Source: Cycas panzhihuaensis (taxonomy: Eukaryota > Plantae > Cycadophyta). Taken from it: 64,000 nucleotides of DNA. The notes below the pieces were generated by a model that worked only from the letters and a program-made list of their open reading frames with translations, did not search any database and had not been told where the DNA came from. The stretch is from positions 58,845,741 through 58,909,740 of the forward strand of contig CM041465.1 of NCBI GenBank assembly GCA_023213395.1. The letters are read 5' to 3'. Shown piece by piece: positions 5,870 to 64,000 of this stretch; the stretch's first letter is position 1, and each line of letters begins with the position of its first letter. The position numbers and the translations under genes were made by a program.

Positions 5870-5874
5870 AATGG

Positions 5875-14181: not shown

Positions 14182-14237
14182 AAAAGATGATGAAGGGTCC
14201 AATAAAGGTATCGGATAATTGTTGTCAAGGTGGAGAT

Positions 14238-14883: not shown

Positions 14884-14888
14884 ATAAT

Positions 14889-21329: not shown

Positions 21330-21334
21330 ATAAA

Positions 21335-23090: not shown

Positions 23091-23116
23091 AACTCAACAT
23101 CCCAAGGGAGGGGACC

Positions 23117-23505: not shown

Positions 23506-23510
23506 ACTAT

Positions 23511-24200: not shown

Positions 24201-24249
24201 ATAGGGCATGGTCACATCAAGGTCGATGCTTCTTTAAAGGGGGAGAAGA

Positions 24250-26109
24250 TATAATGCTCCATTTGTATCTATTATGGATACCACATTATATATTCTCTTC
24301 TTATATTTCCACTTAGTATTTTTATGTCACTATCTCTTGATATAAATGGGAGCTAGTTAAAAGCCCCATCAGATGTGTAGGATGCACCTTAGTTTGTAGT
24401 TCACATTAGAATATGGTGCTAAATAATCTTAGAGTTGCTAGGTCTATGTGCATATGTTATGCACATGTAAACATTTTTGGGTCCACATACCAATATATTA
24501 TATATAATGTAAATACTAAGACCACTAAATAAATGTGGCCAGATTGCTCACGGATAATAGTAAATAAGAGGGGATACATGATATGAATGAGAGAGAAATT
24601 TTCTAAGGGGTAAATTCTAAAAACCATGAATTTTATGTCTAATCCTATTTAATGATTCCACTTTTTAGCTTAGATAGGAAAGAGTATTAATGATAAGAGC
24701 CTTATGAGAAGAAAGAAAGTCTTACTTTTGGGTTAGTATTAATTGCAAGAGCCTTGTGGGAAAAATGAAAGTCTTACTTTTGAGCTAATATTAATGATAC
24801 GAGCCTTGTGGGGAAAAAGAAAGTTTTACTTTTGGGCTAGTATTAATGATAGGGGCTTTGTGGGAAAAAAAAGAGTTTTGACTTTCAGACTAGTATGGAT
24901 TTTAGTGCCATTTCACTTATTTTAAGGGAATCTTCATTTACTTTGGAGAGATTTGTTTTGGAGACTTCTTCATTCTTAAAGGGGAGGAGGGGAGGGGTTC
25001 ATTCTTTGGGGAGAAAGGAGGAGGTTCATATTTAAAATGAGGTTTTCATTTTTTTCTAAAAATAAACACATTCAAGAAAGGGAGAAATGAGACAATTGTT
25101 AAGGATGGATTGTGTTACAAAGTGGGATCTCGTAGAGATATATTACTAGGTAACACTCACATTTGTATTGTTGATTTCTCTTATGCTAGCTATATTAGAA
25201 TCTATGTTGTTGGTAAATGTACGATGTTATTGCATGGGAAAGCTTTACTAAAAGGGATTACGAGTATACTAGTTGCTCATGTGTTCAATATGTGGGAACT
25301 TCTTCTATGGTGATGAAATATATATTGTGTGGCTTGTAGTGGTAACTCAATTTAAGACCTTGTATTGATCATATATATTAATGGCTTGGTCTAGGACCAT
25401 GTATCAACAATCTATGATAATGGCTTGATCTAGGACCATGCATTAATGATTTGATTTGGAACCATTTGTATGAGTGGTCATTCGATTTAGTGTTAATATA
25501 TTGGGGCAAGAAGAAGCTGGATATGGTGTGATACCATCAAATGAGCCTTGGAGATTCTACATTAAGTTGTAGTATGATTGAAAGTGACAAGCCAGTGGAT
25601 TTGAGATAATGAATTAGGAGTTGGATTTTGAATAAAATGTCAAAAGAAAGTGCCCTAATATCCATATCATGTGTCTTAACTCGGGGGCAGATTTTCATGT
25701 GGAGTTTTTGCATGGTTGGATAGTGAATACCTCTGGGTAGTTTGGTTTTCCCACTTAAAGATAAGTTCATGCTATCTTGATCTTGTGTAGATATTCTATA
25801 AAAGTTATAAAATGAATATTAGGATTATATTACATATGTGAATATTAGGATTATATTTCGATCCTATTATGAAGGGCAAAGTGCATACACACTAGTGTTA
25901 CATAGTACGATCTATATTCTTAAATCTTCTTACGGTTAGCTTAGTATGTAGCTAGTTAATCATGTGATTCATTGCATATTATTGTTGTTGTTATTATTTT
26001 GGTGATGGAGCTTAGATAGTTTTGAGAAGGTGGTATCCTTCATGTCAGAAAAAGGAAAAAGAAGAAAATTTTATCTATTATTTTACATTGTTAAGGTATT
26101 GGGTTATCA
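24250..26109 (+). repeat. Gypsy-1 3' LTR (~1.86 kb)
   Basis: Follows PPT aaagggggagaaga; ends gggttatca at the junction with a minus-strand gag/protease; no second copy in the window to confirm the ends. Confidence 0.65.
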
Positions 26110-27500
26110 TAACAATGAAGATTGTCACTGATTCCTTCTTTGATATATCCTTATAACTTAAGTGTATTTGGCCTTATGTGTCTCAACATGGCTAAGAAAA
26201 ACATCTGAGATGGGGTGTCTTCTAAGCCGGGGATTTTATCTTTTAAGGGTTTAAATTTTGATTCAATCTCTTCTTCTAACCCCTCGTCCATGGCCCTTAG
26301 CTTGATAGTGCATGATTATTTTCTTGTGCAATTATGTCAAAGTCCCCACTTCTCCCTACATCCACAACAAAGATCGTTTCTTTGAAGTTTCTCATATTTT
26401 GCCTTGGGTCCTTATTGTATTGCTTTGCCAAGTCCTCTAGGGTGTGCTACTTGTCTACTAACTTCCTTGTTGTCAGGTAACTTGCCTTGGTTCTCTCATG
26501 CATATGGTAAGTTTTACTCCCCTTACTTGACCCAACCTTGTCTTTGAATATGCAAATGCAACTCATTGCCTTATTTATATCTTATGCATCTAATGTTTTA
26601 ACATTGACTTGAGTTTCTATGGCTAGGTTGTTGATATGTAACTTAAGTAATCTATTAGTTGGGATATCTTCTACTATATAAGCTAACCTAGTGAAAGCTT
26701 TACTTTACTCCTCCATTGACCTAATATATCTTGATCTCCTTAAACCACAATATAAATTTCTATTTGAAGTCATCTAAAATCTTTCTATGAAGAATTTGAC
26801 AAACTTGCCCCGTGAAGTTATATAATTCTTGAACATAGTTCTCTCCAAATTTTGCTACCACTAGCATGTGATATCATCTAAATGTAAAGTAGTAATCGAG
26901 TTTTTGTCACTAACTTCAATTTATTTGAGGTAGAAATATTATTCCATCAACTAGATCCACACCCTTGGCTAATGAGGGTTTTGTTATCTATTAAAACATT
27001 AGGTTATTATCTCTTCAAGCTTCTTCCTTTTCTATAGCAACAATGATTGAAGGTAATTGAAATATAGTTGAAAACTAATTATCTTTTAATCTTCTGCAAA
27101 CAAGCTCTAATAAAGGCTAGTATATCCAAGAATGGGTCCCTTAGCCTTTTTAGATTGGAACCATCATATCTTTTCAAAATAATCTTCTACCTTTTGTTTG
27201 TTCTTGTCATGTATCTTACCACCCTTTTCTTGCCCCCCTTGTTTTTTCTTTGGTAGATTATTGTCTTCTTAAAATCTTAAGTTATTCAAGCACTTCTTAT
27301 ACTATGATATTTAGCATAGTATTAGATGCATCTAAGGATTCCTTAATTGCTATGGTTATAAACTAGATCCATTGCTTTTGTAGCCGCTTTGCTTCACTTC
27401 ATAGGCTTTCTACTTCGCTTTTGGCCTCCAAGAATGGATTGACCATGGTGGTAATAGAAAAGGAATGGTTTTAAATGATGGTGTGAAGAAGGATAGTGGG
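26110..27500 (-). pseudogene. Gypsy-0: gag and start of protease of an older minus-strand Gypsy element, interrupted by Gypsy-1
   Basis: Minus strand reads VWI*LME*YFYL..TLHLDDITC*W, RNDLCCGCREKWGL*HNC (gag Cys motif) and KKESVTIFIV (protease start) up to 26110. Confidence 0.75.
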
Positions 27501-27984
27501 TTGAGGAATGGGAAATAACTCAAGTTTTGGTACCTAGTTTATGTAGCAACAACTTTAGTGGGTATTTTGCAAGCCATCCATAATAGTGGGTTTTGTAAGA
27601 AAGGCACACCGAGTGGTAGGTTGATCAACATACCAAATGGTAGGTCAACCCTACATACTAAAGGTAAGCCAACAAACACATTGAGCATAAAGTTGAAGGC
27701 CATATGGATATGGTTATGAAGGTGGGCATTTCTTAATATGTGAATACCTAGATACAATCCATGATATAATTAATTACATGATTGACCATGTCAATATTAC
27801 TATAAGTTAACGAACAAGCATTATGATATAATGCAATGTCATGTCATTTATGTAGGGTCAAATGTTGGCATGAGATGAAAGAGCATATTTTCATGAGATT
27901 TGATGTGAAAGCCAAGTTCTGACTATTGAAGTATTATCTATAGTTAGTAATGAAATACTAAGGGTTGGTGTGCTATAGTTGAAG

Positions 27985-28152
27985 TATGTTGTCTTATGCC
28001 ACAAACATATGTTGTTCTCTTTATAAGATTTGCCTTTTATCATCATTATTGAGTTTGCAAACATGCCTTATGTTGTCTTATGCCATAAACCTATGTTGTT
28101 CTCTTTATAAGATTTGCTTTTATCATCATTATTGAGTTTGCAAACTTGCCTT
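27985..28152. repeat. Tandem duplication of an ~84-bp unit (2 copies)
   Basis: tatgttgtcttatgcc...gagtttgcaaac(a/t)tgcct at 27985-28068 and 28069-28152. Confidence 0.92.
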
Positions 28153-29904
28153 GGGTTTCGCTTTGGATTGGCCTAAGTTCACCGAACATGGTGAACCCGC
28201 ATATCCAAAATGTTCACCCCAAAAGAATATCGAAAACTAATTTTAAAATTTTCTAAAACAAACTTCTCGAAGTCTAAAAGCACAATACATTAAGCATTTT
28301 ACCTTGGAAAGAGAAAATCTCATTCTAAACAAGCTATGAGAAACTAGAAGACTTGCAAATGAAACCGCACTTCGAAAAGACCCCATTGACCCTACTAAAA
28401 AAATGTCACACCTGATACGACCCATGAAAACATCGCTGAATTGGGGAAATTGAGCGGATGGCCTGAACGCCTGAAATTTTCTTTTATCGTCATTTGATTT
28501 ATGAACAAAAATAAAGGAAAAAGTGTATTAATTTTGGTTATTTGATTTTCGGTTCTAGGGGTCCAGGCCAATTGATGTGGGTAGCCTTTCTATGGGGGGT
28601 TCCCCCGACCCAGCAAACTTATTTCTGGCACTGCTTTTGCTTTTGAGATGTCCGTGTTATATGGCGCATTCCCATTACCTGGAACACACGGGATTTTGGG
28701 GTGTAAATCGTTGTCGCATTTTTTATTCACAAAAAGTCGAAGCAGAGGTACCAACATTCGTGAATGCACATAGATGGGAATATATAGTTTGGTACAGCTC
28801 TATCATCTTCCTCTCACCAAACAAAGTGTGGCTCTGCGGTGCCTAACAGAGTTGCAACTCACTCACTTTCTGAAGCAGCAGGAGGCTCATGAGAACGTAG
28901 GTGATGCAGGATGGCAGACTGCTGGCTGGACCCCACTCCACCAAACGATGATATATTTTCTCTTTTTTGGAACTATGAATCTGATTGGGAGAACTGACTT
29001 CAGTCTTGCGGTCCTCAGAACACTATGGGGTCTTCTGTGTCTCGCGGGGTTTGAAAGCTGGTAATTTTTTGGTTAATTTTAAGAGCTAGAGTTGGAACTG
29101 TACTCTATAGAAGTTAATATATGTTTTTTCTGATTACATTTATACCCCGGATGTTTCACCTTTTTTATTGATAGAATATACATCATTCCCAACAGAAAGA
29201 AAAAGGGCAAAATGCTCGCACAAGGTCACAATAATTTCAAAAACAATATCAAAAATTAAGGTGTGGCTTGTCTCCCCAAAAAAAAACAGGCAAATTCAGC
29301 TAAGCTGAGAGCCAAAAACTAAATCATGAAAATCTGGGAATTTCATTAATAATACAATGTATATAATATAAAAGGGATAGATTCACTCAATGCTGTCAAT
29401 AGCAGACCGCAAGCACACCTTCAAAAGGCATTGACAAGTGGATGATTTCCTACTTGTAGACCCCATCAAGCGTTGTTGCGGCTGATGGAATTTATTTATC
29501 CTGAAACAGAATCAGCACTCACAAAATTGGCAACAGCGTGGATTACTTCTATTGGCTGTGATTTTCAAGCATCCGTTGTCACTATCAGGTTCGGTCAATC
29601 AAATAAGTACAGTGGGATCAAGGTCTTTCCCATATTTTCCATGCAACAATGTTGGTGGACCATTTGCAGATAATATTGCGGCATGCTTGCCGTTTGCAGA
29701 GCATCTACAATTTCATAGATTCTACTGACGCATTTGCACAAAGGTCCTCTCATCAGAACTAAAGTAACATCCTGAAGTTGGATACATGGAAATTTCAGCC
29801 ACAGATGAATCGACCAATAGGGCTAAGACACCTTCAAATCTGCTCAAAATTGAATATTGACAGCATCATTTACAATACATATATACAGGAATCTTCATGC
29901 TTGG

Positions 29905-30668
29905 TCAGTCTTCCACTTCTTCCAATTTAGCTCTTTTAGCGGCAGCCACTTTTCTAACAGAGATTCCCCACTTGAGTGCAGCTTTCAGCTTTAACCATCC
30001 CATATATGCTTTACCATGTAGAGAAGCCTGCGACATATTGAAGTCCACATCTGATGTTGTAGGAAGGGCGGTAAAAGTGAAGCCGTGATCTATTTGTGTG
30101 TTTGGAAATAAGTTATATGCTTGTTCAGCCGTGCCTGCATTAAAAATACGAATCCAATTTTGCATTTGTGCCTGAACATCTTCAACATTCAATACTCGAT
30201 TTTCCAATTCAGATGACAGTTCACTAATGGGTTTGGTATAATAAAATCCCTCCATCCCTTCATGGGGCTCCCTATTCCAATCATTTCTGACAACATGACG
30301 TTCTCCATATTGGTCCCTAACACTCCTCTCTTCATATTCACTCCTCAAACTATTTCTTCCTATAACCTCATTCCTAATACCATCCCTAGGCATATGAGAA
30401 TTGAGATTCTGTGCTTGATAAGGTAAGACAGGAGAGCCCATCAGCAAATGTCGAGGACCAAGGGCTAAGGATGAAGATCCTAAACCTTGAATATCCATAT
30501 TCTGTTGGGTAAAACCTGTTCCTATTGCAACTTGATTGGGTGTTGCAATGTTTAAATTATCACCAGCATGAAGCCAACCGGTGCTGACCTGCTCTGTGGA
30601 CTGGTTATGGTCTATAAACCTGCTAACCATCATCTGTGACTTGAGGCCTGCTTGTGCTCCCTGCCCAT
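29905..30668 (-). CDS. CBP60: CBP60 exon 8 (C-terminal calmodulin-binding domain, stop)
   Basis: [36 protein letters not shown]. Confidence 0.94.
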
Positions 30669-33600
30669 CTGCAGAAGCATGCGTAAGTTATTAAGTTTCT
30701 AAAAAGAGCATCTATAATAAATGCCAAAAGCCTGTTTCAAGTAATAGCTGACTATATTGGCGAGTAAAGTTCAAGTACCATGCTCTCGTGATAAATCTGT
30801 CATTTGAAAGATAGAACCTCGAGATCCTTGGATATCATCAGCAACTTCTATATGAGCACTTAATGTTTGAGATGCATGACTGATCTGGAATCCTCCCTCA
30901 TATTCAATCACATTATCCCAATGTTTATATGCATGTCTTACCAACCTTTCTACATAGGGCTGCACAGTAGCAAATTGTAAGAGTTACACAGTCAGACCTA
31001 ATGCCCTAGCATACCAAGAGCATATACTATAAATTTGGTTCTAAAGAAGAGAACTAGAATTCCAGGGATCTTACTTTTTGAGCTTCTGTAAGGTCATGCA
31101 CAGGAATGCTCTGGCCCTCTGCAATAAGCCCCACCAATTCACATATGATATTAAAGACAACTCCAATATTGTGCTGCGCATCAGCATAATGCACAAAATA
31201 CTTGTTATTGAGATCACATGTCCTGGCGTGATCCACTGTTCCTTCCCACATTTTGTTTGACATTCCAGTGCCAAGGATCTGCAAATTTTTAACGGATTGC
31301 AAATGCTTTAGGCCTACAAAGGGCACTGACCAACAATCCACTTCTGTAGACTCACATAAAAGATCTTTCGTTTCTCACATTGAAAACTCTGATGGTAAGG
31401 ATTAGACATCAAAACCGAAGTAAAAGAATACTAATATTACCTGGCGAAGTCTTTGGGGATCCATAACCACTAGCCGTAAGAAGTCCTGCACTGTGTAAAT
31501 ACCTTCATTATTCAACCGTTTATGGAAAGCACCATCTTTGCCTATTTTGTCCAGACGCCAGACGTCATCATGCAGTGCTGGAGGATAGTGCTTCTTATAC
31601 ACTGCAAAGAAAAAGTCAACATTGCTTAGTTATTTCACTTCTACCTTTTGATGGGAAGGGATGTTTCAGCGACTAGAGAATGCGGGTTATCTGAAACATA
31701 TTTTCATTTGACAATCTTTCATATGTCCAACTATTTATCTAGGGGTAAATGCTAACTTTTTATTTCAAATAGTTTTCCAGATTATGTGAATTCCATCCCC
31801 GTATGCGTAGTTCCAATGAAATGCATTTTAGAAACATTTCATGTAATAAAAAAACTCCAGGAAACATTGACTAAAATTAATCCCTAAGTCAACAATTTTA
31901 TAAGTTTAAGGTTAAACTACTATCATTCATGAGAAAAGCACTATGTATGATTTAGGTTTTAGCTTTGATTTAATGGTTACACTGCAAACATTCATTAATT
32001 TTCAAAGTTTCCAATGGTCAAATCTGCAATGACCATTTCATATGTTTTAATCAGAATTGAAATGCCTTCTGGAAACATTTCACTGGATTGTGCATTTTTA
32101 AGTTCTGTCACAACTATGCTGCAAACAATTCTATTAACTTTCCATGTAAAGGGAAAAGGAGCAATCAAAATTGTAAACCCTGCCTTTGTGTTTCATTACC
32201 TGTCCAATAAGAAGTCATCAAGCTTTTCTTCCTAATACAACACATTTTGAAGAATAGTCGTCTTAAAAAATATGTAAGAATGAAGACTTAAAAAAACGCA
32301 TCTGCACTCTATTGTATTCAGTAAACTAGTTCCTATTTCAATAATGCACAATTCAAACGATCTGGGAAAAGCATTCGAGTTATTTTGATAACTATTAGGA
32401 AAGTCACAGAAAATTTTCCCAGGGGCAATGAAAGTCTTATGCTGACAGTTATTAAAACATTTGAGGGCTGTGAATATGCACCGATTTGATAATTTTATTG
32501 TAAAGTATTCAGTATACCAAAATATTATGACTCGAAAATATTTAAAAAATCCCTAAGATCCAGTTGACATCAGTTGTTTGTGCTACTCATCTAAGGACAA
32601 ATTATCCAATCCAAGAATGCTACATCATAGCCGTTTTTTTTTTTTTTAATTTCAACCAGCAATAAATGCAATTCAACCAGGGCCAATTGTTGGTCAATCA
32701 TGCTAAGGGGCCTGCTACATAGCCACCCGATCCCCTTTTCAATAGAGTCTTGTAACAAGCATGGCAGCCCTCAAGTACAGTAAAAGTACAAGATTTTGAG
32801 AAAAGGGTACAGAAAATATGGCAGTGCATAAAGGTGCAAAATATGAAATGAACTCAAGAAAACTGCACACATAAAATAAATATTATGTAGTATGAGATGT
32901 TGTATTTGTTTCACTTGTATGATATATTAGGTCAAAGTGGGCTAGTTTTCATGCATGCAAAATATGAAACGGACTTGAGATTTTATTCCTTTATTTTAGG
33001 TTTGACTGGGCTAGTTTGGTTTTAAAGCTTTGCGGGTCCTATTTTGTATTTTAAGTGATAGATACACCAAGGGTCCAAATGGGTACGAGTTAATCCACTA
33101 AAACGGGGCTTTGGTCTAATGTTAAGATGCAAGTGTTAGTGCATGCAAAACCACATTTCAATAACCATGGACACATCATTGTAATGCTAGCCTTTGAAAA
33201 AAAAAAATAAAAGGTAAAAAAGGTGATGGTTTTGAAGTTAGGTTTTCATACTTCAATTCAAAATATGTTACAAAGTCAAAATTTGCAGCTTGTATGCAGG
33301 GAACTGCAATTTTGCATATTAATTGATGGACTTGGCAATAATTTTGCATTTGATGATGGTTTTGGGTAATGGGAAATATTGAATATTTGCAAGGTTTACA
33401 ATCTGCAGAAGAATTATTGCTGTGAGCAGTGATTGTTGTCCTGATGATCGTGATCATGATCTACAGTAGATGTCTGATCACAATCCTGCTGAACCCATTT
33501 GAAGATGATTGTGAACTCACTGATAAGGATTGTGATCTGATACTTCTGTGTTTAACTAGTTGGAGATAGATTGCTTCTCTTATGTACTTTTGGAGGCCTA

Positions 33601-36600
33601 CAGACAAAGGACCAAGTTAAAAAACAGATAAGCTGTAAACTTCCTTATATAGGAGTAGTAGTTATTAGTTAAGGTGGTAGTTAACTGTCAAGTTGGTTAG
33701 AGTTGGTTGCAATTGATAACCCAGCATATAAGTAATAGAAAATGATATAAGGGATATTAGTCTCACCTTTTCGAGAATCCTGACTTGAGTCAGGATTGAT
33801 CCAGCAAATGTATTAGAAAAGTCACATCTACTTGCAGGGTAACTAGACGTACATCTTTCTAACATGAATAGAATCTGAATTCTGCCATTTATTGTGCTGA
33901 TTATTGCTGATTGCCTCTAACCAAAGCATGAGTGTAATAAGAGAGGGGCAGCAATCTTGCATCTGATTCTGTTGCGTCTTTGCCTGTTTGCAGGTTGGTT
34001 AGTTGTGGATTTTCTGTGGATGATTTCCCCCAACAGTTCTTGAATGAGGCCAACTATCCTGAATATGGTATGTTCAGCTAACAGTCAACACAGCTGCTTT
34101 TATGAAATAAAGTGCAACAGAAAAGGCTAAGTTTCCTGACACTTTTGCATGTTAAAATTATTAGGAGTTTGTTCCCAAGGTATAGATCAAGCAGTAAGGC
34201 ACCCTCCCTTTCACAGACTTGTTGGCAGGAATTCGAATCTCATTGGCAATACCCTCTCTACAACCAAGAATGTAGCAAGACCAACACCAAAATAATAATT
34301 AATCAGCAGATATAGTCAGATATAATTGTCAAAATATACTAATCAGCAATAACAACAGCAGAAGCAGTGAATGCCAGGCACTAAAGTGCCAAAATAACAG
34401 ACAATAACCCATTATGAAAAGAATAATAATTCATGCCTTTTTGGGATATCACGGCTCCCCTATGTATAGGCAAATAATTGGCCTTTATGGAGCCGACTTC
34501 ACTAGTAAAATATTGGTTATCATTTGGCTCATTACAAAGACTTGCAATGGGAGGGCCACGATAGAATCAAAGAAGTCATAGTCTTACCAATTTGTTTAAA
34601 AACCATGAATGTATGAGCACAGAAAGGACATGACAGGGGGAAAAGAACAATGAAAATATGAGTACCGGAAAAGCATGACAGCAAGAAAAGAGCAATAGAA
34701 AGAGTGCGAAGAGGAAACTTACATTCTCCCCGGTGATCCTTGACGGTGAAGGCTTCTGTCATTGCTTCTCGTACTCTAATTCCATCATCGGCACCCCCTG
34801 CAACTCTGGCTCCAAGCCTGAATTTACGACTTCTTATCCAGCTGGAATTATCAGTAAAGGTTAATTCCCCCAGAATTCCAATACCATCTTTCAGTGTAAT
34901 GACCAAGTCACCAGTAAGAAGTGGACGCTTCCCCTCCCTCTCTCGAACCACATGAATATCAAATTCTTCCACAGTCCAATCTTCATCTTCATCAGGTACA
35001 AAGTCACCTTCAAGAACAGTTATCTCCACCTTCATTGAAGATTCCGGCCCTGATTTGATCACTTCTCCGGTAGAAGCATCTAAAAGTGCTATGTGAATTG
35101 GGTGATTTTGCTCCCCTTCTACTCTGCTCCCGGTGAAAAGAGGAAGAGACAGCTTGTTTTGGAACTGTAATCGCATGTTTCTTGATTTAGATCCTTGTAT
35201 TTGCTTTGTGGAAGATCTACAACAAATTGCAACAAGGTACAGTCTTCAAAAGTCTTGAATATGACACATAGAGGATACCATAGTAAGTTACCAGGCTTTC
35301 CATTGCTGGATGCATTTGCCCATGGCTTTAGGTTGTGTGTGTGTGAAAGTGGTAGGATCCTGTAGGAATTGAGCCTGTAATGATAGTTTGGCAACTGCCA
35401 CCTAACATCCACCAGACCAAACCTGCTTCATCTGACATGCTATACAATCATATCTCATCATGCTTTCTAACAAGAATCAAAATTATGCAGCAACTTCCGT
35501 CCCTACCTTGCCTTTTCAAAGGCAAGGTTAAGATCCATTTCTTGAAAGAGATGGTTAAGATTGCAATTGTGCCTCTCACCTTGGCGGTGCAGGCACATGC
35601 TTTGCCAATGCTTTATCAACCTCCTCAGTTACCTGAAAAGAAGATGTGGATACCCACAGAATAAGCTTAACACTAAAATGTTACAAATGTGAAAAAACTT
35701 TGTAAATGTAAAACAGCTTGATATATAATTATAATGTACAATGTTCATGGACAATTCCATTTTAGAATTCGGTGTTCCTCTCTTTTGATTTTCTTCTTCC
35801 TCTTCTTGTCAGAGATGTGCCTTTAAACTGGACAACAGTGCTTTACATACTGTACATTCACTTCGTGATACTTCCTACTATTAGCACCTGTTCTTGTTTA
35901 AACAGAGGATGCCAATGTGATAAATGTACATAACAACAACGCTTCTTAGATAGACACTAAAAGCATTATCAATTAACTCAGATTTGAAAATCAATCCACC
36001 TTCAAGTTCTGAAATTGAGTGACATCTTGGTCAGTCCACTATATGAACCTTGTAATCTCTTTTTCTTACATTTACAATATGTTATTTCAGTTAGTTGAAT
36101 CTTACCGCGCCAGTTCTGATGTAGATCAGCCATGTTTCATTGCATTCTTTGCTGCTTGAATTCCTTACATAAGGATTTTACGCCTTAAAACAGTTGGAAC
36201 TGTTTGCCATGTATATTGTATACCATCACAATTTGCTCCAGGAGACCGTAGTGATATTTGGAATGCCCATCCTCTTATCTCTTTAATGTAAGTATCTATC
36301 ATAATCAAGGACACAATAATTCAATGTGCCTAAAAGGAGAATGTCAGTTACGAATAGATTGCAAAATAGTGTATCACGTGAACAGGATTCTTATTCGAGG
36401 ATAAAAGACAATTATGGTAGGGAGCAAAACGTCTTTCACCGAACGCTATCGTCTCATGATTCTTTATTCAAACTTATACGTTTTTGCATCTTACCCAAGG
36501 ATTGTGCTCGTGAGCTCTGAAAAGTAAGTACTGAGAAATATAAAAAGAGGGGTTTATGCACAACTTAATTCCAAGGCATTTTTCTTGTGAATGAGGTAGC

Positions 36601-43740: not shown

Positions 43741-44292
43741 CAATGACACCAACAAAGAAAACCCTTCTAGCCATTTCCATGTTATAAGATGGCACTTGAA
43801 GTTATCAAGCCTAGTGTTTGTAACCCATTTAAAGAGAAACGTGAAGCAAGGGTATCTAAAAATGCCCAAATGAGGAAAGACGATAAAGGAATATTTGGTG
43901 AGGTGAGATAATTGATTCCTACTTCCACAGGAGAGTGTGAAGCATTATGTAAGAAACAATGAGAGGGATGCATAAGAATCACAACTCTGGTGGCATTTGA
44001 ACCAATTGTGGTAGTTTTAGAGCAAGGACGGGAGGAGCTTGCTTACTCTAGACCCTATATCTTTACTGGTAGGCAATTTTCAACCTACATACCTTGTTTT
44101 CAAAGGATTAGCAAATTTAGAGATTACAAAATTTCTATAGAAGGAAGGATTACACCCAATTTTGGCTTGTATGGATTCCTTCACTGTGGTTCAGTAAACC
44201 TTGGGTTTGAATAAGATAAACAATGTACAATATCATAGCTTACGGTTGGAATATTAAATAGTACAAATGACCTCGATAGACTTTACATTGGT

Positions 44293-45038
44293 CATGGGGT
44301 ACAATGTCTACTTATCTTTACCTTTCTCCACTGTCGAGCAACTAGTAGGAATGGCCTCCATGGACCCCTCCGGTCATCGTCACGAGGGACGGGACAAAAC
44401 TACGAAACGAGACTACTTTTTCATTATCAATCTGAATGGTTCAAATGGCCATACTATGGACATTGCAAGAGAGGCCATCAAGGGAGGAGCAATTGTCGTA
44501 ATTATAGTTGAAGATGATGGCACTCTTCATGAGGTTGTTAATGGCTTCTTTGATGCTGGAAAGCCTATTTCTACCTGTGAGGAAAGTGCCACACATACAA
44601 CATCTCTTGGACTTATTCTATTGGTAGCTAGCTCATATTTTGCAAGAACATTTGGCTAGAGGAATGATCCATATGAGGTAATTGAACGTATTGCCAAAGG
44701 CTAGAAGCAACAGATTGATGTTGGCCTTGTGGTTGGAAAGAATGATGAGTTGGACTATTTTCTAAATGTTGTCAATATGCATTTAAGTGCAAAGGTTTGA
44801 TACTATGCTTCCAAGTATAAGAGATTTGGAATTCTATGCTATGTAATTGGTGCCTTTCAAGGATTCATAGGTCACAATAACTAGCATATGAACATTAAGA
44901 TAGACAACAAAGAGTGGAAATCATTTCCTAAAGTTATAGCTCTCTTGTATAAGAAATACCAAGTTCTTTGATGGTGGGATAAAGATTACTCCAACAATAG
45001 ATCCTTCTAATGGGAAGTTTGAGGTTATGGTGCTGCAG
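44293..45038 (+). pseudogene. LCBK2: Processed (intronless) fragment of sphingoid long-chain base kinase 2 (DAGK-catalytic family)
   Basis: RDYFFIINLNGSNG..DIAREAIKGG..DGTLHEVVNGFF..LGLI..FARTFG*RNDPYE..IDVG..YFLNV..HLSAK..ASKYKRFG.LCYVIGA..GGIKITP..GKFEVMVLQ; stops, one frameshift, one internal deletion. Confidence 0.88.
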
Positions 45039-45067
45039 GTGAGCGATTGCTCTTTGAGAAAGAAAGA

Positions 45068-45517
45068 ATGACCATCACGGGCTTGAACGTGGGTGCAAAC
45101 CTGAAACATAATGAAGATACTACAGATATAAGCAACTTTAGTGCTATGCTTGCATAGGTTCCTCGCATTGATGAATGGTGCATTAGAGGTTCAACACTAG
45201 GACAAGGTACTTATGGAGTTGTGTATAAGGCCATTGATATATGACAAATCAAACCATGATAGTTAAGAAAATCTTCTGCGGGTAGTCAAAGAAGGTGTTA
45301 ATGTCACTACCTTGAGAGAAATCAAACTATTGAAGGAGCTCAATGACTCAACTATAATTGAATTAATAGATGATTATCATCACAAAAAGAACTTGTATAT
45401 TGTCTTTGAGTACATGGAGAGTGATCTTGAAACTATCATAAAAGATCATAACATAGTTCTCTCTCTTATTGACATAAGATCTTATATGCAAATGACTTTG
45501 AAAGGGCTTGCATTCTG
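45068..45517 (+). pseudogene. CDKD: Fragment of cyclin-dependent kinase D (CDK7-like CAK), N-terminal part
   Basis: [76 protein letters not shown]; truncated and frameshifted. Confidence 0.88.
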
Positions 45518-45894
45518 GTTGTTTATGACTTTTGTCATCTAAGCCCCATACCATTCCTTATAAGGTGATGGAATAGTACGGATTGATAACCATCAAAATG
45601 GTTCCTGCTATATGAGGTGTTGGAGATTGAGTAGTGTGTTAATGTTGAAAGATAACATGAATGGAGATTATAATACCAGTGATGCCCTTGATTGGCCTTG
45701 TTGCCAATACATTCAATTCACTGGCAGTTAGAGGAATTTCTTACTCAAGGGAAAATAAGAGGTAGTTTGTTAGTGTTGAGGAGACCAGACTACTTGTAGT
45801 AAACCCTGTGGTACCTAGAGGCCCTACTCACAATAAAATATTGTTGGGGACATACTAGTGCATGTAAATGGCAAGGTTGTAACACAATTCTCTA

Positions 45895-53386: not shown

Positions 53387-56300
53387 ATGGCAAAAACACA
53401 AGGAGAAAAAATTACTAAGTTAACCACTAACTTCACCAACTTTAAGTAAGACTTCACTAGTAGGTTCGAGGGCATACCTACCAAATTAGATCTCCAGGAC
53501 ATAAAAAAATAAATCATGGTGTAACTATTACAATCCTAACTCCATAGCACAGATACTGCTCATACAATAAGCAATCAACCTCCCCCTTTTCAAGGAAATA
53601 ATGCAACTATAATAGGTTCTCCACCAAGGTAGCCTTTCTTTCATAAAATTAATATTCTTATCTTCGATGTAGATGTGAATAAGGAATGTATTTGAAGCTA
53701 GATTAATAAGTTAGAATCCTATTTCACACTCCACCTAATGTCTGAGGAGGATCAACTCTTATGTGCTTCTATCCACCTAGATGGATAAGCCTACCATTGG
53801 TTCAACTGGTAGAAATAAGAATATCCCTCGCACTTAACATGGTCCCACTTCACTAGTTATTTCTTTAAATAATACGAGGACATATAGAGTCAATCTTTTT
53901 TCACATAACTCATTCAACTTAAATAGACTACAATAATGGAGGCTTATACTAATGAATTTCAAGCTTTACACAATCGCTCGCCACAAAGTCAAAACTTGGA
54001 TAAATAAATAATAATTGATATCTATGTGGCTGGACTCCAAGATCATATTCAAATAAGACTAAAGACAATGGCAATCTATTCCTTCAAAGATGCATTCAAG
54101 TGAGCTTAAGCAGTAGAGGCTGAATTTATGGTAGATAGACCCTAAGCTAATCGTCGGGATAGCAATTGGTTCTCACACACTCAACAATCAAACTTCCAAT
54201 GAATTTAATCTCGATTTGATGATGATGCCCATCCTCAAGATGACTTTGTACATCCTCAACCGTGACAAGATTATACCACCTGCCCAACCATCGATTGGTA
54301 AAATGATGACTCATCTACCAAAAGAGTCTAAATTTCCCAAGCTGAAGCACAATGCCAACTAGAGGCCCATCTCTGTATATAGTGTACAGAAAAGTAGACT
54401 TCTGGGCATGGTCGCATCTGTAAGGTGTGACGTATGGTTTTTTTCCATTGACCCATCCCTATCCCTTGATGAACCCTTTAACTCTAACTCTAAACACGAG
54501 GTTGAAGATGATACTTATGATGACTCTACCTCAGACCCTCACCCTGTAGTATCATTATCTATTGTCACTACCTCCTTTTGTCCTGAACCCCTATGTGTCC
54601 AAGGCATTTTTTACAAGACTCTTGTGTTTATCTTGATCGATGGTGATACATCAGTTAATTTTATTAATATCTCTATAGATCAACAATTTAACCTATATAT
54701 AGTATTAAAAACTGGCTCTGCCTATTCTCTACCAAGGTAGTAATAACTCCACTATACTAGTGTTATTAAAAACCTATAAGTCCAAATTAGCTCCTATCTG
54801 TTGATGTTAGATTTCTATGCCTTATCAATAAGAGGGTCTAATACTATCTTAGAGATTCAGTGGTTACAAACCCTAGGATCTTATAATACAAATAACTTGC
54901 CTACCAACCCATTCATCACTTTCAAAGACCAAATGGGTTGAAATCACAAAATTTTTGGGATGCAGTCCCCCACTAACCAAGTGGTCTCTCGCGGGCGTAC
55001 GAAATGTCATCTTCAATCTCACTTAGGATATATAATTCGCCTTAACAATATTTAAATCAAATCGTAAATTCACCCAAGTATTTAGGACATCATTACCCAA
55101 TATGAGCAGGTATTTACTCCTCTACTCACCACTACCCAACCTGATTGTGGATTTTATCATACAATTGACCTCTAATCTAATCATGACCTTATCAACTTAA
55201 GACTTGACCACAACTCATGCTTTTAAAAGAACAAAATTGAGAAACTCACAACCGAGCTCCTTGACATGGGCATAATCCAACCAAGCAAAAGCCCTTATAT
55301 AGCTCTAATAATCTTTGATAGGAAGAAAGATGGTTCCTTCCACCTCTGTGTTGATTATAGAGAACTAAATAAAATTACCATATAAAATAAGTTCTCCACA
55401 CCTTACATAGATGATATAGTGGACGGAATTCATGGTGTGACTATTTTTTCTAAGTTAGACCTTCAATCCGGTTACTACCAAATCTGAATTGCCCCAGAAG
55501 ACTACTATAAGATAATATTTTAAATATATCATGGCCATTTTAAGTTTCGTGTAATGCCCTTTGACCTTTATAATACCCTGGCAACTTTTCAAACCCTTAT
55601 GAACAAAATTTTTAGCCCATATCTCCAAAAATTCATCATAGTATTCTTTGATGACATTCTTATTTATAGTGTCTTCCTAGACCACCACATCCAACACTTA
55701 GAAATTGTCCTTCAAGTACTACAAAACCACCAACTCTATGCAAAATTATCTAAGTATGAGTTTGAACAATCTAAACTCAAATACTTAGGGCATATCATCT
55801 CATTGGAAGGGATATGCATGGACCTCAATAAAATATCCATCATTATGACTTGGCTAACACCTACCACCCTCACCTAACTATGAGTATTCCTTGGGCTCAT
55901 AGGATTCTACCAATAGTTTATGCATAACTATGCCACCCTCATTGCCACCTTAACCAATCTCCTTCATAAAGATGCTTTTCAATGGCCTCCAAAAGCTGAT
56001 GTTACCTTTTCTCATCTTAAAGTCATAATGACCTCTACCGTAGTCCTCATCACTCTTGATTTTAACCAGCCTTCTCAACTTGAATGTGATGCCTCGAGAT
56101 TTAGACTCAGTGTAGTCCTAATGCAAGACTCTCATCCCATTGCATTCAAGAGCCAAAAATTAAAAGAGCATGAACTCCATCTCTCTACATAACAGAAGGA
56201 GATGAAAGTTATTCTCTACAATATTGATAAGTGGAGGTAATACCTCTTAAGCTCTAAATCCACTATTCTTATGGATCATCATAGCCTCCATAATATGTTA

Positions 56301-56592
56301 GATCAGTTAGTCCTATTAGAGGAACAAGCTAAGTAAGTTCACCATCTACAAGTATTTGAATTCATAATATCGTATAAAAAAGGTAAAGTCAATATAGTTA
56401 TAGATGCCTATTTACATCTCCACCCTAACGACAATACTCCCAACTTGAGCCTCCATGCCATAAGCAAACCCTAACCCCTTTGGCTTGATGAAATATGGAT
56501 TGAAAACCATGCCCAACTTGACTACCCTAACTTGAGTAAAAAGATTTTCATTGATAAAGTTTGGTCAACCTTCAATAATCATCTACTCTATT
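53387..56592 (+). pseudogene. Gypsy-3 gag-pol remnant
   Basis: INKLESYFTLH..HLDG*AYHWF (gag); ILIDGDTSVNFI (protease); RT ~55250-55900; RNase H ~56070-56420. Confidence 0.87.
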
Positions 56593-57590
56593 TATTTCTC
56601 ACCTGTCAAAATGGATTTGGAGTTCATCGCATAAGTAAGTAGAGGTATACATTCTATCTCATACTTTTATTACATTCTTTTTAGTCATTACTTTATAGGA
56701 TGCTTGTTTTGCTACTTAGATACATGATGGTTTGGTTTATTTAGCTTTCTTGTGTTGATTACTTGCCTATGATGATCAGGACTTTGGTCCAATGGCATCA
56801 TTAAGCCTCGATAGTGGTCTCCTAGTTGGTAAGTAGTTCATTACATACTCCTGTAGCCTGATCTTAGCTAAGTTCTGACTCATTTTTGCTCCTTTGTTGC
56901 ATCTTTTCCACTTGCCTCTTGCCTTATCGATGACTTGGATAGCCTAGGGTAGTTTGTTGAGAACTTAGAGGGGATTTTGCACCTTATTATTTAGACCCCA
57001 TGTGATTTCTTTATTAATTTTCATGGATTCATCTCAATTGCTATTGTTCCCATCAAGTTCTGACTCAATTTCACAATATTATTATGTTTTCTAGCTATAT
57101 ATTAGTCATTTAGATGGCCTAATATTAGTTTGTAGGGATCTAGGGAAGAGTTCTTAACCCTTGGTAGTGAGCTTCCCCTCAATTTATATTAATTCTAGTA
57201 ATTTACCTCCACCCCGCTCTGGTTTCTGTGTTGTGCAGATATGTTTGTAGTGTTGCAAATATATTCACGATGCAACTGTTAGTGACAAAAACATGGCTAA
57301 TAACATCTAGATTTGTATTTAACATAGTCCCTAATAGGTCCCTCACCTCAAGACTAGCCTAGATCGAGGCCTAATGATCATGGGTGGGTGTTCAAATATA
57401 AAAACTCTTATTTTTATTGATCATTCATCATCCTACACCCATCTTTCGTGCTCATTTTTTACTCTTCTTGGACCGAACAGAGAATGCATATTCTTGAGGG
57501 AGAAAAAGATAAGAAGGACATAGATTTTGGGTAGTACAATCATTTGATCAACCTCTACTCTAAACTACATTCTTCCTTTATCTTCTTCAC
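56593..57590 (+). mobile_element. Start of a diverged long-LTR-family LTR, interrupted at about 57591
   Basis: tatttc..aatggatttggag..gtaagtagaggtata and gcctatgatga align with the LTR starts at 3305 and 63571. Confidence 0.55.
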
Positions 57591-59039
57591 TGAAAGATTT
57601 TACATAAAAGGTTTTCTTAAGTGCTACTAGAAGTGCACCTCTGGGGGTCACCAGATACGAAGAGATCAAGCCAATACAATCAATAATCTTGTGGATAAAG
57701 GATCTACAGAAGTGAGGGAAATGATTACCCATAAAGGTCATCCGTGTGTCAGAACACAGGTTTGAGGACCCACAAATGGCACACAAACTTCCTCTCAAAA
57801 CAAGCACCTTCTCAATTTAGGATGGGTAAGAGAGGGGCTTCCTCGGTTTATCGAGTAGCCTAGAAAAGGAGACCCTCCTATCCTGGATGGCTTAAGGAAG
57901 GAGGATATAAATGGGATACACCCTTCCCAAGGAGAGGGAATAGGTGAGGTAGGTCCTAACCAAAAGAGGAAGTACCCACAAGCAAGTAGCGGGTGGCTGG
58001 TAGTATGGATGAAAAGGGGATGTTGGGCTAAAGAAGGGCCAAGTTCTAAATAGAGGTAAGGGAAAGTAAGCCCTTACCAAAAGGGGAGAGGAAGACCTTA
58101 AGGGGGAGTGCTCCTAAGGTGCCTACACCTAAAATGGATAGTTAGATGTAGGGGACAAGGTAATATATTTTGTTCTTTCATTTTTTGTTATATAATGAGG
58201 TGGGGTGGTGCTACGAGTTATTGTTGTTTCTATTTTGTATTTGAATTAAAATAGGGAAGTAAACAAGACAATAACTCTCTCTCTCTCTCTTCCTAAACCC
58301 TAGCCTCTCTATCTTTATCTTTTATAAGTATAAAAGGAAATATGCAGGCAAGAAGCATAAGAAGAGGATGCAAAGACTAATGCAAGTCAACCCAATGGTG
58401 CATGGGAAAGGAGGATAGGTGAGAGCAGGGAGACTCACATCCCTTTACACTCTAATGCTAGCAGATATAAGAATTAAGTGAGGAGAAGCGGGGTAAAGAT
58501 GCAACTAGTGAGGGTTGACACCTACTTGTGCAAAGTAATTACCCTTCCACCTATATGATCAAATAAGTTAAGTAATGAACAATGAAATACAAAATTATAT
58601 TTTCTTTTATGAAATACCAAAAACTATCTTTTCTTTTGTTCTTCCTTTTCTTCTTTTGGGAGTAAGGGGGGGAAAGAATGGATGAGAGGATAGAAGGGAG
58701 TACACTTGGAAACTAGACGGTCAATGTAAAAGCCCTTTCTTCCACCATGCAATCCACTTTTGTTTACCTAACATTCCTTATCGTAATTTATGTATTGGAA
58801 AGAAACACTAACAGGGCTTCCTTACCTTCCCAAAGGTGAAATATAGAAAGAACTAAAAGAAGAAGAAGAAAAGAAAGGATTTCTTACAATGAAATTTCAA
58901 GGTAATGTAATAACAATGGGAGAAGTACGTGTACCTATAATGAAGACCTCTGTTTGTCCCAAAACGGGTGAAACCTGCATAAAAAACTACTTACCCTTTC
59001 CCAAGGGGCACTAAACATGCAAAGGAGCAAGCGTGTATA

Positions 59040-59070
<31 letters not shown>

Positions 59071-60890
59071 TTTCTTTTTTTTTTGCAAAAGAAAGAAACA
59101 AGAAAAGTAACCCTATATAAATGTCCTTTGAACAAGCAAAATACGCAATGTTAGTTTTACTTATCATATATACATAGTGATCCAATGATTATGGGAAAGG
59201 AGGGAGAAAGGAGAAAGGAAGGATAACCGCAAAATGGCTAACCCTCCTAATGGGATGTCTCCACGTTCCTAAGCACTTAAGAAAGCAAATCCAGATAGGA
59301 TCCAAGTTTCTTTCAAGGATAAAAGAGCAATAAACTTTGCATACAAAAAAGTTGCAAGGAAATGTAAAAGCTGCAATGACGAACTTTTGTAAGATTTTAC
59401 AAAGACAAGACTGAAATAGTATAAATATTAAGAAGCTATTGCTAAAAACTAGATTTTCTGAAGCCATGATGGCTGGTTATAAGCATAGCAAGGTGTTGTT
59501 AATGTTGCAACCAACAAGGCTCCCTACCCCAAGGGTTTCTAAGCAAACATGAGAGGTATTGGGAGGAAAAAGAGCGAAGACTAGGAGGTTGCCCTTGAGG
59601 AGATGGAAAAAGGATACAAAACCCTAGCTAAAACTCCTTTTTCTCTTTACTGGACACTTTTCTCTCCACCTCCTTGAGTGGACTGAAGGAAACCTCAAGG
59701 TACAAGGGAGTAAGCTTGAGAAAGAGAAGGGTTTGCCTTCTAGAGTGGACAAATAGGAGGTAGTTTCACATAATGAATTGAAATAGCAAGCAAAAAAACC
59801 ATAATGCTTGAGGAAAAGGATGATGTGCAGGCCTATAGATACCTAGTAAGAGCATATCTGAGGTAGATCTACCTTGTGTAGTGGTTGAAAGAGAGGTTCT
59901 CCTTGAGGACTGGTGAAGAAACCTTGCAATGGTACCAAGAAAGAGCATGACCTATAAATAAATTTGATGCTTATGCTTGGATGGGATATTTGTGGAGGAG
60001 ATCTATCCCAAAGCTCACTGTTGTAGACCTATAACTCATGGTTTTACCTTAAGGGAGATGGTGGCAAGAGTGGAGGACAAGTACAACAAGTGAGAGCCTT
60101 CGTTTCATAATTTTTCCTTAGAGGTGAGGAGGAAGAAGAGGAGCAATGAGAAAAAAATTAGGTTTTAAAACCTAATCATAGCTTAATGGGTGATTATGGC
60201 TCACCCTAGGAAGGAAACAACCCATCACCATATGTTAATTTTACATTTAATGTAAATTTGGCCATTGCAATATAAAAAAGTAAATTTGAATAATTGCACC
60301 ATAGTAAACTTCACAATACTGTAGAGTTTGTAGTGGTACCACAGAATTTACAGCGGTGCACTCAAAACTAATTAAAAACTAAGGAGGGAGCCCAAAAGGC
60401 TCCCCAAAAAGGAGGCCTTAGATCCCAAAAGGATAATAATACAATGGCAATGTGCCAAAGGGGGGTTATAGGACCTAGGGAGACCATGATGAACGAGGAG
60501 AAGGTGGTAACAAGGCCCTAAAGGGAGACAAATGGCGAAAAAGGGCGACAATCAGACCTAAACAAGATGTTAGGGGTCACATCATACCAAGGAGCAATAA
60601 AGGATAGGCTACGGGAGCTAAGAGTACTTAGAGGCATTGTGGAGACATGGCATAGGGTTGTAAGATGCCATGGGATATATATCCCTAGTCATCATAAGCT
60701 AAAGTATTAAGATGCAACATGAGTATGCAGGTAAGCTAAGTACAATGATCATGCAATCAACCAATCAATATGCAATGTGCATATATTAATAATCCAATAG
60801 CGTCCTGAAGCTAATGAAAGTGAGGATAGACACATACCTACACTTACTTAAGGTGAGTTATCCATGTCTATTCCCATTAGTTAGGAAATA
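57591..60890 (-). repeat. 3' LTR (~3.3 kb) of a minus-strand Tat-like element
   Basis: Right end (gtctattcccattagttaggaaata) matches the reverse complement of the 3305 LTR start; PPT ccaagggggtag (minus strand) at 60891-60902; patchy internal similarity; left boundary tentative. Confidence 0.65.
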
Positions 60891-61429
60891 CTACCCCCTT
60901 GGCAGTAGAGCCTCACTGCTCAAAAGCACAGTACGATGGCGAATGCTAGTAACACAAAGGTTAGTATCATGTATCAAAGCATTGTAGTGTCATCATCTAA
61001 GGGCGGTGGTAAGTATCGTAGCAGAATGCATGGACAAGGAGAAGAGAGGGGCAGAATAGGGGCTGCCTATGCATCACCCTAAAATCTAATGAAAGAGAGG
61101 ATGGATGAGGGGGATGCTCCCATCGCACCTATGCAAGGTGAATGATGCTGATAGTCACGAGTATGACAAGATAATATAACTAAAAGTATATATATATATA
61201 TATATATAGATCTAAATGTGAGGGCCTTGTACCATAGGTGGTACGAAGGACAAAGTGAAGAAACAAACCTAGTGGTTACTCTATTTTAACCTCATCAATG
61301 GCCAGCTTTCAGAGGTGCGAACAGATTGCAGGATGACAGATGGAACTCTCTCGGAACTAGGGTGATTGGGGAACTTGATAGGTTCCTCAGGGAGGATCAT
61401 CAAGGAGAGGGAGATGACACTTGAGGATG

Positions 61430-61809
61430 TGACAAACGAGGCGGTCTATCTCAATGTTTAAGTCTCCAGGAATGTGTTGAATATCTATGAAGGAGAAACA
61501 AGATAGAAGAGTCCTAGCAATCAAAGCAAGGGCTCTCAAATGTAGGTAGTGTACCTGGTAAACCTAGGTAAGCTGCAACATGACGATCTGAGAGTCACAA
61601 AGAAGGATAATAAGACCGTGATGGAAATGGAGTGCATCGGTAAGGGCCTTAATAACAGTTGTGTATTTAGCTTCGTTATTGGTGGCCTCAGGGAAAAAGA
61701 TTCTGGAACGTATGTAGTCATATCCAGAGGGGTCATGAAAGATCCACGCAGTGGCAGAAGGTCCTAGATTACCACGACTTTCTCCATCAGTGAAGATGAG
61801 TAATACCAT
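61430..61809 (-). pseudogene. Archaeal-type RNase HI (aRH) domain
   Basis: FTDGESRGNLGPS..ATNNEAKY..ALTDAL..CDSQIVMLQL..Y.V..; after a frameshift FIDIQHIPGDLNIEIDRL. Confidence 0.88.
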
Positions 61810-63083
61810 GGTGAAGAAGTAAGGACCTCTGCCAAATGGAAAAAGGAAAAGTGACAGTGAGGTTAATAGGTGGAGAGAAAAGAGGAAAGATAGCGATGGG
61901 GCTACGAATCACTCAGAAGGCTATAAATATAGGTCATAAAGAACATGAGGGTCCTAAAAAGAGGCTACCCAGGAATGAGGAAATCAACATGGTAAAGAGG
62001 TGAGAAAACAATGGTGAAAAAGGCCCCTTCATGGCTCCAAAGATTTCTAAAAGGACCAAAAGGAAGTCAAAAAAAAAAGGAGGGAAGCGCTTCCTTTAGG
62101 AGCCTCAAAGGCTTGAACAGGCAACAAAAATGGATCCAGAGTGGCGAAACGAGTCAAAGGAGTATAAACATAGGTATGTTTTGGGGCAATGCAAAAAACG
62201 AGATAAAAGGGATCTGGAGGAGGCTGGAGAGGTCATCATAAATATGCCAAAAAGCTAGAAATGGAAGCCATGGAGGTGAAACAGAAGATGGACCTAGAAG
62301 ACAAAGGTGATAAGGCTAAGAAAGCGATCTCAAGGGCTATCATGGCAAGGGAAAAGGAGAAAGTACCCCTCAGGGCCCCTGCGTATATAAAGGAAGGAGG
62401 GTGAAAATGAGATTCATTGTCACGGGCTTGTGATCGATCTGGAGCCCTTCCTTCTGCAGAGCAGAGTCTTACCTGACTTCAGGAGCACAGAGCGAGAGAT
62501 TCGATCATTGGATCAAGGAAAAGAGATAGCCAATATAATCAAGACGATGAGATGGTAATGGTGATGTTGGATTTAGTAAGTTGATCGTCCCCTATCCCCT
62601 TCATTTCATTGTTTATGTTTAGTGGCTTTTTGAGGTTTTTGTAGCTTGGTTTAGGCCCCTTAAGGGTGATTTAGGACCCTCTGGAGCTTGAACGAGGCCC
62701 AGAGTGGGGGACAACTAGGGCATTAGGTAGCCCTGGTCCTACTGGGCTAGGCCTTAGCCCACTCAGACAAACTTTTGAGGTCTATTGGGCATCCCCCTCT
62801 CCCCCTCCCTTTTTATAGGGGGAAACAATGGCCTTGCAGCAAAGATCACAGTGCCACAGAGTTTGCCGCAGGGTTGTTGATGGGACATGAGAACCTCAAT
62901 GGGGCTCGTGTTAAACTTCATGGTACCACAGAGTTTGATGTGGGGCAGAGAGGACATAGTGGAAAAAAGAAGAAAAGAGGTCCATGGGGATGGCTAACTC
63001 AACCTACTGGAGCATGAGACGTCCTAAGGACGACTAAGCATGGTATAGAGAGTATTTGGACTGATACTCATGTCATTTTACAG

Positions 63084-63570
63084 GTGGTTCTTGTGATCGA
63101 TAATTGCGAGAACATATGAGTCACGATGATGAGATTCATAGAGATGATGTTACAAGGAGACAGGTAGATATTGAGATGTTGTGGGCTCTTGAAGATCATT
63201 AGGATGCCCCAATATGCGTTAGACCAGCATCTCCTAATGGATATAGTCTCTCACTGGGATTGTAGACAATACGTTTTCCACTTCCCCTGGGTAGGAGATG
63301 TGATTGTCATACTAGGGGACATCAAGAGGATTTTAGGGGTACCAATACGATAAGCGCCAGCATCGTTAGGTACATTGCCTAGCACAAACGTTACACACAC
63401 AGAGGCAGCGACATACTTCACAGGCTAGGGTAGGTAGGATCGATGAGGGGTGTCAGTGCAAACTATGGTGATGTCCAGGATTCCTCGAGTGAGTAAGTTC
63501 ATTACACTAGGCATTTTGTTTTGGATCTCCCAGAAATAGAACTACATGGATATTCTATGCAGATGGATGG
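63084..63570 (+). pseudogene. Plant mobile domain (PMD, MAIN/MAIL-like) fragment, interrupted by an LTR
   Basis: GLLKIIRMPQYALDQHLLMDIVSHWDCRQYVFHFPWVGDVIVILGDIKRILGVPI matches the PMD pattern D..LL.ALVERW...THTFH.P.GE.TITL.DV..ILG.P; preceded by acceptor ttttacag. Confidence 0.82.
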
Positions 63571-64000
63571 TGTTTCATGGCTACCAGGAATGGACTTGAG
63601 ACAAGCAGGCTCAGGTAAGCACAGGTATATACTTCTCACTTTTATCCTCACTTTCGCTTGTTAGAAGTTGTTTAGAGTATTGTTTGATGCATGTTTGCTT
63701 GCCTTTTATGTGATCGCATTGCCTTCTCTGCTTGATCACGTTGCTTGCACCTGCCGCACACTATTTAGCCTATGACGACCCACCATGGAGCACTCCTTAG
63801 TGAGTCATGCACCCCATATGGCACTCAGTTGCATGTAACACCTCCACAACTCCTTAAACATTGTTGTTGGTAGCGATCCGCTCACATCAGCACTCCTATC
63901 ACCACTTTGAGCCCTCTTCTAGGTGTGATAGGACCTCTCTGAGACTTGTTTCTCTCTTTCGGCCATTTGCGAGCTACTTGGGCATGAGCTCCCAGCCTGC
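63571..64000 (+). mobile_element. Start of another long-LTR-family LTR, running off the window
   Basis: TGTTTCATGGCTACCAGGAATGGACTTGAG and agcctatgacgac..accccatatggc align with 3305-3600. Confidence 0.85.

Follow-up and report, generated by a model that had tools for sequence, protein, structure and literature searches.

Results

Gene content of the locus

The end of the window, by which we mean the whole 64,000-nt stretch of Cycas panzhihuaensis DNA that was analysed, carries an archaeal-type RNase H1 (aRH) ORF on the minus strand and, upstream of it on the opposite strand, the 5′ part of a PMD frame (Table 1). The two frames sit head-to-head with no integrase between them. Both are broken by mutation, the PMD frame is cut by a nested insertion, and the copy is likely dead. 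Related sequences are present in high copy number.

Table 1. Features at the aRH-PMD locus (window coordinates)
Feature	Position	Strand	Basis
Likely LTR, ~3.2 kb, both ends approximate	57635..60890	-	Depth drop, contig exits, adjoins purine tract
Likely PPT, 7-nt purine tract	60894..60900	-	Sequence
Archaeal-type RNase H1 (aRH) ORF	61387..61809	-	Pfam and PDB matches, Met column of relatives
Predicted intron or leader of aRH transcript	61829..62472	-	Donor-like site at 62472, pyrimidine tract and AG
TATA-like motif TATATAAA, candidate PMD promoter, inside predicted aRH intron	62384..62391	+	Sequence
Predicted PMD intron, weak pyrimidine tract	62576..63083	+	GTAAGT at 62576, AG at 63082-63083
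TATA-like motif with G/C-rich flanks, candidate aRH promoter, inside predicted PMD intron	62810..62817	-	Sequence
5′ part of PMD pseudogene, antisense to the element	63084..63567	+	PF10536 match at 63183-63398, stop count
Unrelated nested repeat, likely LTR end, in PMD, outside the cassette	63568..64000		Similarity within the window, contig exits

The window as a whole is repeat-rich, with 36% GC. A CBP60-like calmodulin-binding protein gene at 29908-35245 (-), with N-terminal, middle and C-terminal Pfam domains and several exons, has the look of a host gene. Diacylglycerol-kinase-like fragments followed by a protein kinase fragment (CDK-like by eye) at 44258-45539 (+) are likely pseudogene pieces. 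A Copia element with integrase-side, SH3 and RT domains occupies 9551-14884 (+), its paired LTRs sharing 87.5% identity. The Gypsy pol regions at 15565-23506 and 53700-56600 (+) are both decayed and related to each other (64% over 1.3 kb), the former containing three repeats of 500-570 nt at 17091-21330, one of them inverted.

The aRH ORF and its relatives

The aRH frame runs from the ATG at 61809 to a stop at 61387-61389, a length of 140-141 codons. With the internal stop read as X, the translation matched Pfam RVT_3 above the cut-off (E 2.9e-10, 40.6 bits, profile positions 2-113 of 123) and RNase_H at E 1e-5. All four PDB matches (4e19, 3u3g, 4h8k and 3hst; E 1e-13 to 2e-9) are archaeal-type RNase H1, which we take to be of Halobacterium type (4e19), LC11 (3u3g and 4h8k) and the N-domain of Rv2228c (3hst). 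The ORF has in common with archaeal-type RNase H1 the sequence family and the motif layout of the 130-residue domain; those proteins are cellular enzymes, whereas this copy has an internal stop (61564-61566, the only one in the frame, against 6 and 11 in the other two frames) and a non-acidic residue at the second catalytic acidic position. Moreover, the ORF lies ~500 bp upstream of the short purine tract and the likely LTR, that is, in the 3′ region and outside the RT-RH-INT core. An earlier reading of the sequence alone (the sequence-only reading) had placed an aRH on the minus strand just before the PPT and 3′ LTR, and the RVT_3 match together with the purine tract bears this out.

A search of 1.84 billion representative sequences returned 3,635 aRH matches at E<=0.001. 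Among the best 150 of these, P0005, P0008 and P0011 were 57-67% identical to the window aRH and the rest at most 42%; each of the three is a single sequence off a short assembled contig. In a quick tree of 61 rows, which held no named Tat reference and cannot assign lineage, these three and the window aRH formed one clade (SH-aLRT 98), with P0010, a 142-aa solo aRH of 42% identity, as its sister (support 88). A Met is aligned with ATG 61809 in all three close relatives, giving 4/4 with the window. Two of the three (P0005 and P0011) begin at this Met, which is not independent proof of the start, because gene callers choose Met starts. A word-based homolog search with the decayed aRH found nothing in 118 longer and 10 near-length candidates, a weak negative. 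Nothing was found in the viral contigs scanned, nor in metagenome contigs scanned for the PPT motif, and an alignment scan of metagenome contigs gave 80 loci of 29-44% identity, none of which resembled the element at the DNA level or matched PMD.

Several other origins for the ORF were considered. The placement of aRH inside Pol seen in Ogre/Retand (structure #1) was rejected, there being no RH upstream and no INT downstream of it. Plant L1 elements with a C-terminal RNase H have RT directly upstream in the same ORF, a poly(A) tail and no LTR; here no RT lies upstream, a purine tract and likely LTR lie downstream, and an L1 origin was likewise discarded. An origin from host RNase H1 was also rejected.

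The region between the two genes

The sequence-only reading had described a degenerate N-terminal extension of aRH at 61810-62340 that lacked integrase motifs. The second half of this description holds: none of the six minus-strand frames of 61799-63099 matched a Pfam family at E<=1, and we therefore take no integrase to lie between PMD and aRH. By the same search no pol domain lies within 1.3 kb upstream of aRH. The first half does not hold. The three minus frames of the supposed extension contain 8, 8 and 7 stops, its minus strand is 69% pyrimidine (T 39-41%, C 28-29%), and the 37 residues upstream in P0008 share only 1/37 with the window, with local scores no higher than those of shuffles in every frame. 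Taken with the Met at the aRH start of the three relatives, these data argue against coding, and the region is likely a non-coding intron or leader. The absence of a Pfam match and the pyrimidine content of the minus strand also led us to discard a decayed integrase tail upstream of aRH.

Minus-strand motifs include a strong donor-like site at 62472, a TATA-like motif at 62817 and, 19 nt before the aRH ATG, an AG (61830-61829) with a pyrimidine tract; these 19 nt are open in the aRH frame. The first exon of aRH predicted from these sites contains upstream ATGs. The plus strand has the TATA (62384), donor (62576) and acceptor (63082-63083) letters that had been proposed for PMD. The minus set mirrors the plus set (TATA 62384, donor 62576, acceptor 63083), and so each candidate promoter falls in the predicted intron of the other gene. 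A third TATA-like motif, at 61922 (+), lies inside the predicted aRH intron and points toward PMD. The letters are present, but their weight is limited: the window contains TATATAAA 9 times, and the number of donor-core hexamers (3, with 2.27 expected) is what chance would give. The strong donor was matched in 112/500 shuffles and the acceptor count in 28/500. The TATA-like motifs exceeded shuffles (3 seen, reached in 5/500), for a pattern picked after reading the sequence. The mirror-image TATA and intron motifs of this one decayed copy suggest two interlocked promoters. A single bidirectional promoter shared by both genes, as had been suggested, is not supported against two candidate promoters with overlapping 5′ exons.

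The PMD fragment and the nested repeat

That a PMD frame lies on the opposite strand was upheld by the match to PF10536, which covers profile positions 1-72 of 347 only and falls below the curated cut-off (E 2.6e-5; 24 bits against 34.9). The frame has 7 stops in 161 codons. The sequence-only reading had missed that it is interrupted: a different repeat has inserted directly after 63567, where PMD stops. An alignment to window 3301-3545 (64% over 257 nt, E 1e-16) opens at a TG at 63568, and the sequence ahead of this TG shows no resemblance. Moreover, 55 contigs of sequencing run X4 (see below) leave the window at 63570 with a common, different continuation, and depth rises about tenfold. A continuation of PMD to 64000 was rejected on these grounds. 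At window 3302 the matching repeat sequence follows a pol-like frame; the sequence from 3302 onward and 63568-64000 are diverged copies of one repeat end, each starting from TG and each interrupting a coding frame. Given the insertion, the rest of PMD would lie beyond it and pol is out of view; the pol and 5′ LTR of the element would be expected on the far side of the nested repeat.

The fragment shares its family with Arabidopsis MAIN/MAIL1 (PMD-C), which are host genes. According to the available text of PMC5418596, Gypsy PMDs form clades PMD-A1/A2, separate from the genic PMD-B/C. The sequence-only reading took PMD to have been domesticated as MAIN/MAIL1; the authors of that paper favour this in the same text and state the direction of transfer to be open.

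The purine tract, the likely LTR and the copies of the family

Contigs from four DNA runs of three organisms were aligned to 56000-64000 at 80% likeness. Between 31,593 and 36,109 contigs per run fell on this interval, with every bin covered in 4/4 runs. Of the 35,402 contigs of run X1, 1,052 were at 99% identity or more, 4,120 at 95-99%, 13,078 at 90-95% and 17,152 under 90%. Contigs were mostly less than 95% identical, and transitions far exceeded transversions. The family is plainly large and old, the contig depth not being itself a copy number.

Contig depth is highest or near-highest in all four runs at the purine tract (27,000-72,000, bin 60806-61072). At the far side it falls about thirtyfold, again in 4/4 runs, from 2,900-5,900 (bin 57602-57868) to 103-155 (bin 57335-57601), with 31 X4 contigs exiting the window sequence at 57636. 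From this fall and these exits the LTR likely spans ~57635-60890; it rests on depth and loose ends, there being no second LTR copy within the window. TatIII (structure #3) elements have paired LTRs, a 5-bp TSD and a PBS that is mostly tRNA-Arg, whereas one likely LTR is seen here, at 3.2 kb against 217-1,759 nt in structure #3 representatives, from a pipeline that limits LTRs to 3,000 nt. Window 57617-57640, past the end of the likely LTR, resembles with a short gap the continuation common to the 31 X4 contigs. Both resemble, by eye, what we take to be the tRNA-Arg PBS motif. Given PBS-like sequence past its end, the LTR may be the middle LTR of a tandem arrangement and not a plain 3′ LTR.

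Discussion

Taken together, we read the locus as what decay has left of the 3′ end of a Gypsy retrotransposon with many copies, its separate aRH ORF of ~140 codons lying downstream of an antisense PMD; the element would likely be a gymnosperm TatIII (structure #3), with aRH likely supplying RNase H in its active ancestors. We put the probability of this reading at about 0.78. TatIII membership is likely, the lineage not being placed by RT phylogeny because the RT, RH, INT, PBS and TSD of the element fall outside the window. The names need aligning: as far as the texts are available, TatIII of REXdb (PMC6317226) corresponds to lineage III (PMC4408406) and to structure #3, clusters Tat H and I (PMC10508981, PMC13468544).

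Like TatIII / structure #3, the locus has an archaeal-type aRH in a separate ORF between the expected place of integrase and the 3′ LTR, an antisense PMD ORF in the 3′ region (here sub-cut-off and broken) and a high copy number. Structure #3 was described in 2023 as having a separate ORF for aRH in conifers, Cycas and Ginkgo (PMC10508981). The text of that paper puts this aRH "upstream of pol", whilst its Table S3 gives INT.aRH and PMC13468544 has it post-integrase, so the wording, within the available parts of both, is likely a text slip. In REXdb, TatIII has aRH after INT (39 elements, mean 14.7 kb), with an intact antisense 3′ ORF in 18% of the 39 (PMC6317226, available text). For the gymnosperm lineage III, the 2015 text reports aRH as the last, C-terminal part of the putative Pol and, first seen in this lineage, a PMD ORF in antisense at the 3′ end (PMC4408406). 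That position of aRH implies an order opposite to that of this copy, where PMD is upstream of aRH and head-to-head with it. The available texts of PMC10508981 and PMC13468544, figures aside, make no mention of PMD, with 0 occurrences in the supplement of the former and the main text of the latter.

Other Tat elements offer partial parallels. In Ogre/Retand elements, too, pol and the 3′ LTR are separated by an accessory gene in antisense orientation, with PMD in 57% of Ogre and Transposase_28 in Retand; their aRH, however, is inside Pol between RH and INT, and the antisense ORF has no sense gene after it. In mosses and Selaginella tamariscina, structure #4 Tat likewise has aRH as an independent ORF outside pol, yet upstream of gag and not beside the 3′ LTR. 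Antisense 3′ ORFs in such elements are described in the available portions of PMC7264820 and PMC11963269, the former reporting that maize Grande gene23 has an upstream promoter of its own that drives its transcription.

It follows from these reports that an undescribed accessory module, as the sequence-only reading had suggested, cannot be claimed: a post-integrase aRH as separate ORF (PMC10508981, PMC13468544) and an antisense 3′ PMD ORF (PMC4408406) are both on record for gymnosperm TatIII. That aRH would be its own gene does fit this copy, given the antisense PMD, the 1.3 kb free of integrase upstream and the Met at the domain start. The locus is probably a dead member of a known lineage and brings no new system. 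With each gene already in print, what is new is at most the gene order and the predicted splicing scheme. Searches of the available literature turned up no paper, apart from those cited, on a PMD-then-aRH order or a spliced aRH, though figures, REXdb tables and non-open work (Steinbauerova 2011) may show the order.

How might such an arrangement have worked? The native RH is degenerate in all aRH-bearing Tat structures (PMC10508981). Because this RT-linked RH is reported degenerate, aRH probably performs the RNase H steps of reverse transcription, as the family literature suggests. As its own protein it would supply the RNase H activity reported missing from the reverse transcriptase of the element, and inside the particle it would degrade the RNA template and make the PPT primer. 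On our reading of the motifs, aRH would start at ATG 61809 on a message spliced at acceptor 61829, with transcription initiated either locally, from a promoter near 62817, or in the 5′ LTR, giving a protein of 140 residues. PMD would be an antisense accessory protein expressed from a promoter of its own near 62384, comparable to gene23 of Grande. Nothing here points to an R-loop or chromatin role, either of which had been suggested; the RNase H step of reverse transcription is the plainer role.

A more elaborate form of this scheme can be drawn, which we hold only tentatively and think rather unlikely. Between pol and the 3′ LTR, TatIII would carry an interlocked two-gene switch in which each gene has a short first exon and one intron, the promoters lie in each other's introns, the 5′ exons overlap at 62473-62575, and a solo RNase H complements the dead RT-linked RH in trans.

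Alternatively, aRH may be joined to Pol by splicing from a donor near the end of integrase to acceptor 61829, skipping the antisense PMD and producing a Pol-aRH fusion. Such a fusion retains some plausibility, since the aRH frame stays open through the 19 nt ahead of ATG 61809, and an RNase H tethered to RT is the arrangement of other Tat structures (PMC10508981). However, Met is kept at the domain start in 4/4 close sequences, which a pure fusion would not need, and the donor-like site at 62472 is nearer. Moreover, an alignment search of longer proteins found 7 matches to aRH among 7,996 scored, none of which had an integrase family; all were prokaryotic-looking and the search was weak. On balance we regard the fusion as improbable. 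If true, it would reconcile the "C-terminal of Pol" of 2015 (PMC4408406) with the "separate ORF" of 2023 (PMC10508981), so far as the available texts go.

It could also be asked whether PMD and aRH are one unit at all, since insertions are heavily nested in the window, one of them cutting PMD itself, and contig depth over PMD (380-1,850) is far below that over the aRH core (18,000-36,000). The two genes would then come from different elements and be neighbours in this copy by nesting or recombination. Against this, unequal divergence at the 80% threshold can yield such depth differences, and overlapping pieces from other copies run through the interval in order. Among the contigs listed, deletion joints in other copies step across 62208-62918, and one contig spans 62930-63265. 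A joint between 61774 (aRH) and 63369 (PMD), of unstated orientation, occurs in one X1 contig. None of the contigs listed spans the whole cassette. The loose ends listed between the genes resemble diverged kin of the window and not foreign flanks, and lineage III is reported with both genes in the available text of PMC4408406. Linkage of PMD and aRH in one element is therefore likely, and their origin from two different elements very improbable. A non-autonomous or internally deleted Tat derivative that retained PMD and aRH only would account for the lack of any pol of the element in the window and for the deletion joints common among aligned contigs. The window, however, ends inside the nested repeat, so that the absence of pol is not an observation, and autonomous structure #3 elements occur in thousands in pine-family genomes (Table S2 of PMC10508981, as available). 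We give this derivative hardly any credence.

The separate aRH ORF within the decayed 3′ end of a TatIII element, our preferred reading, bears on two questions raised for this family. PMC10508981 asks how aRH works from a separate ORF outside pol when the native RH has decayed. Together with the gene order, the predicted junctions, of which the acceptor 19 nt upstream of the aRH start is an exact one, make a question stated as open testable. In 2026 the status of aRH, as part of Pol or as separate ORF, was called controversial (PMC13468544, available text). With an antisense gene placed between integrase and aRH, an unspliced Pol-aRH fusion would be excluded, which bears on the controversy as that text frames it. 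If the interlocked switch were true, plant LTR elements would have in it their first split reverse-transcription machine, and whether the post-integrase aRH belongs to Pol would be settled.
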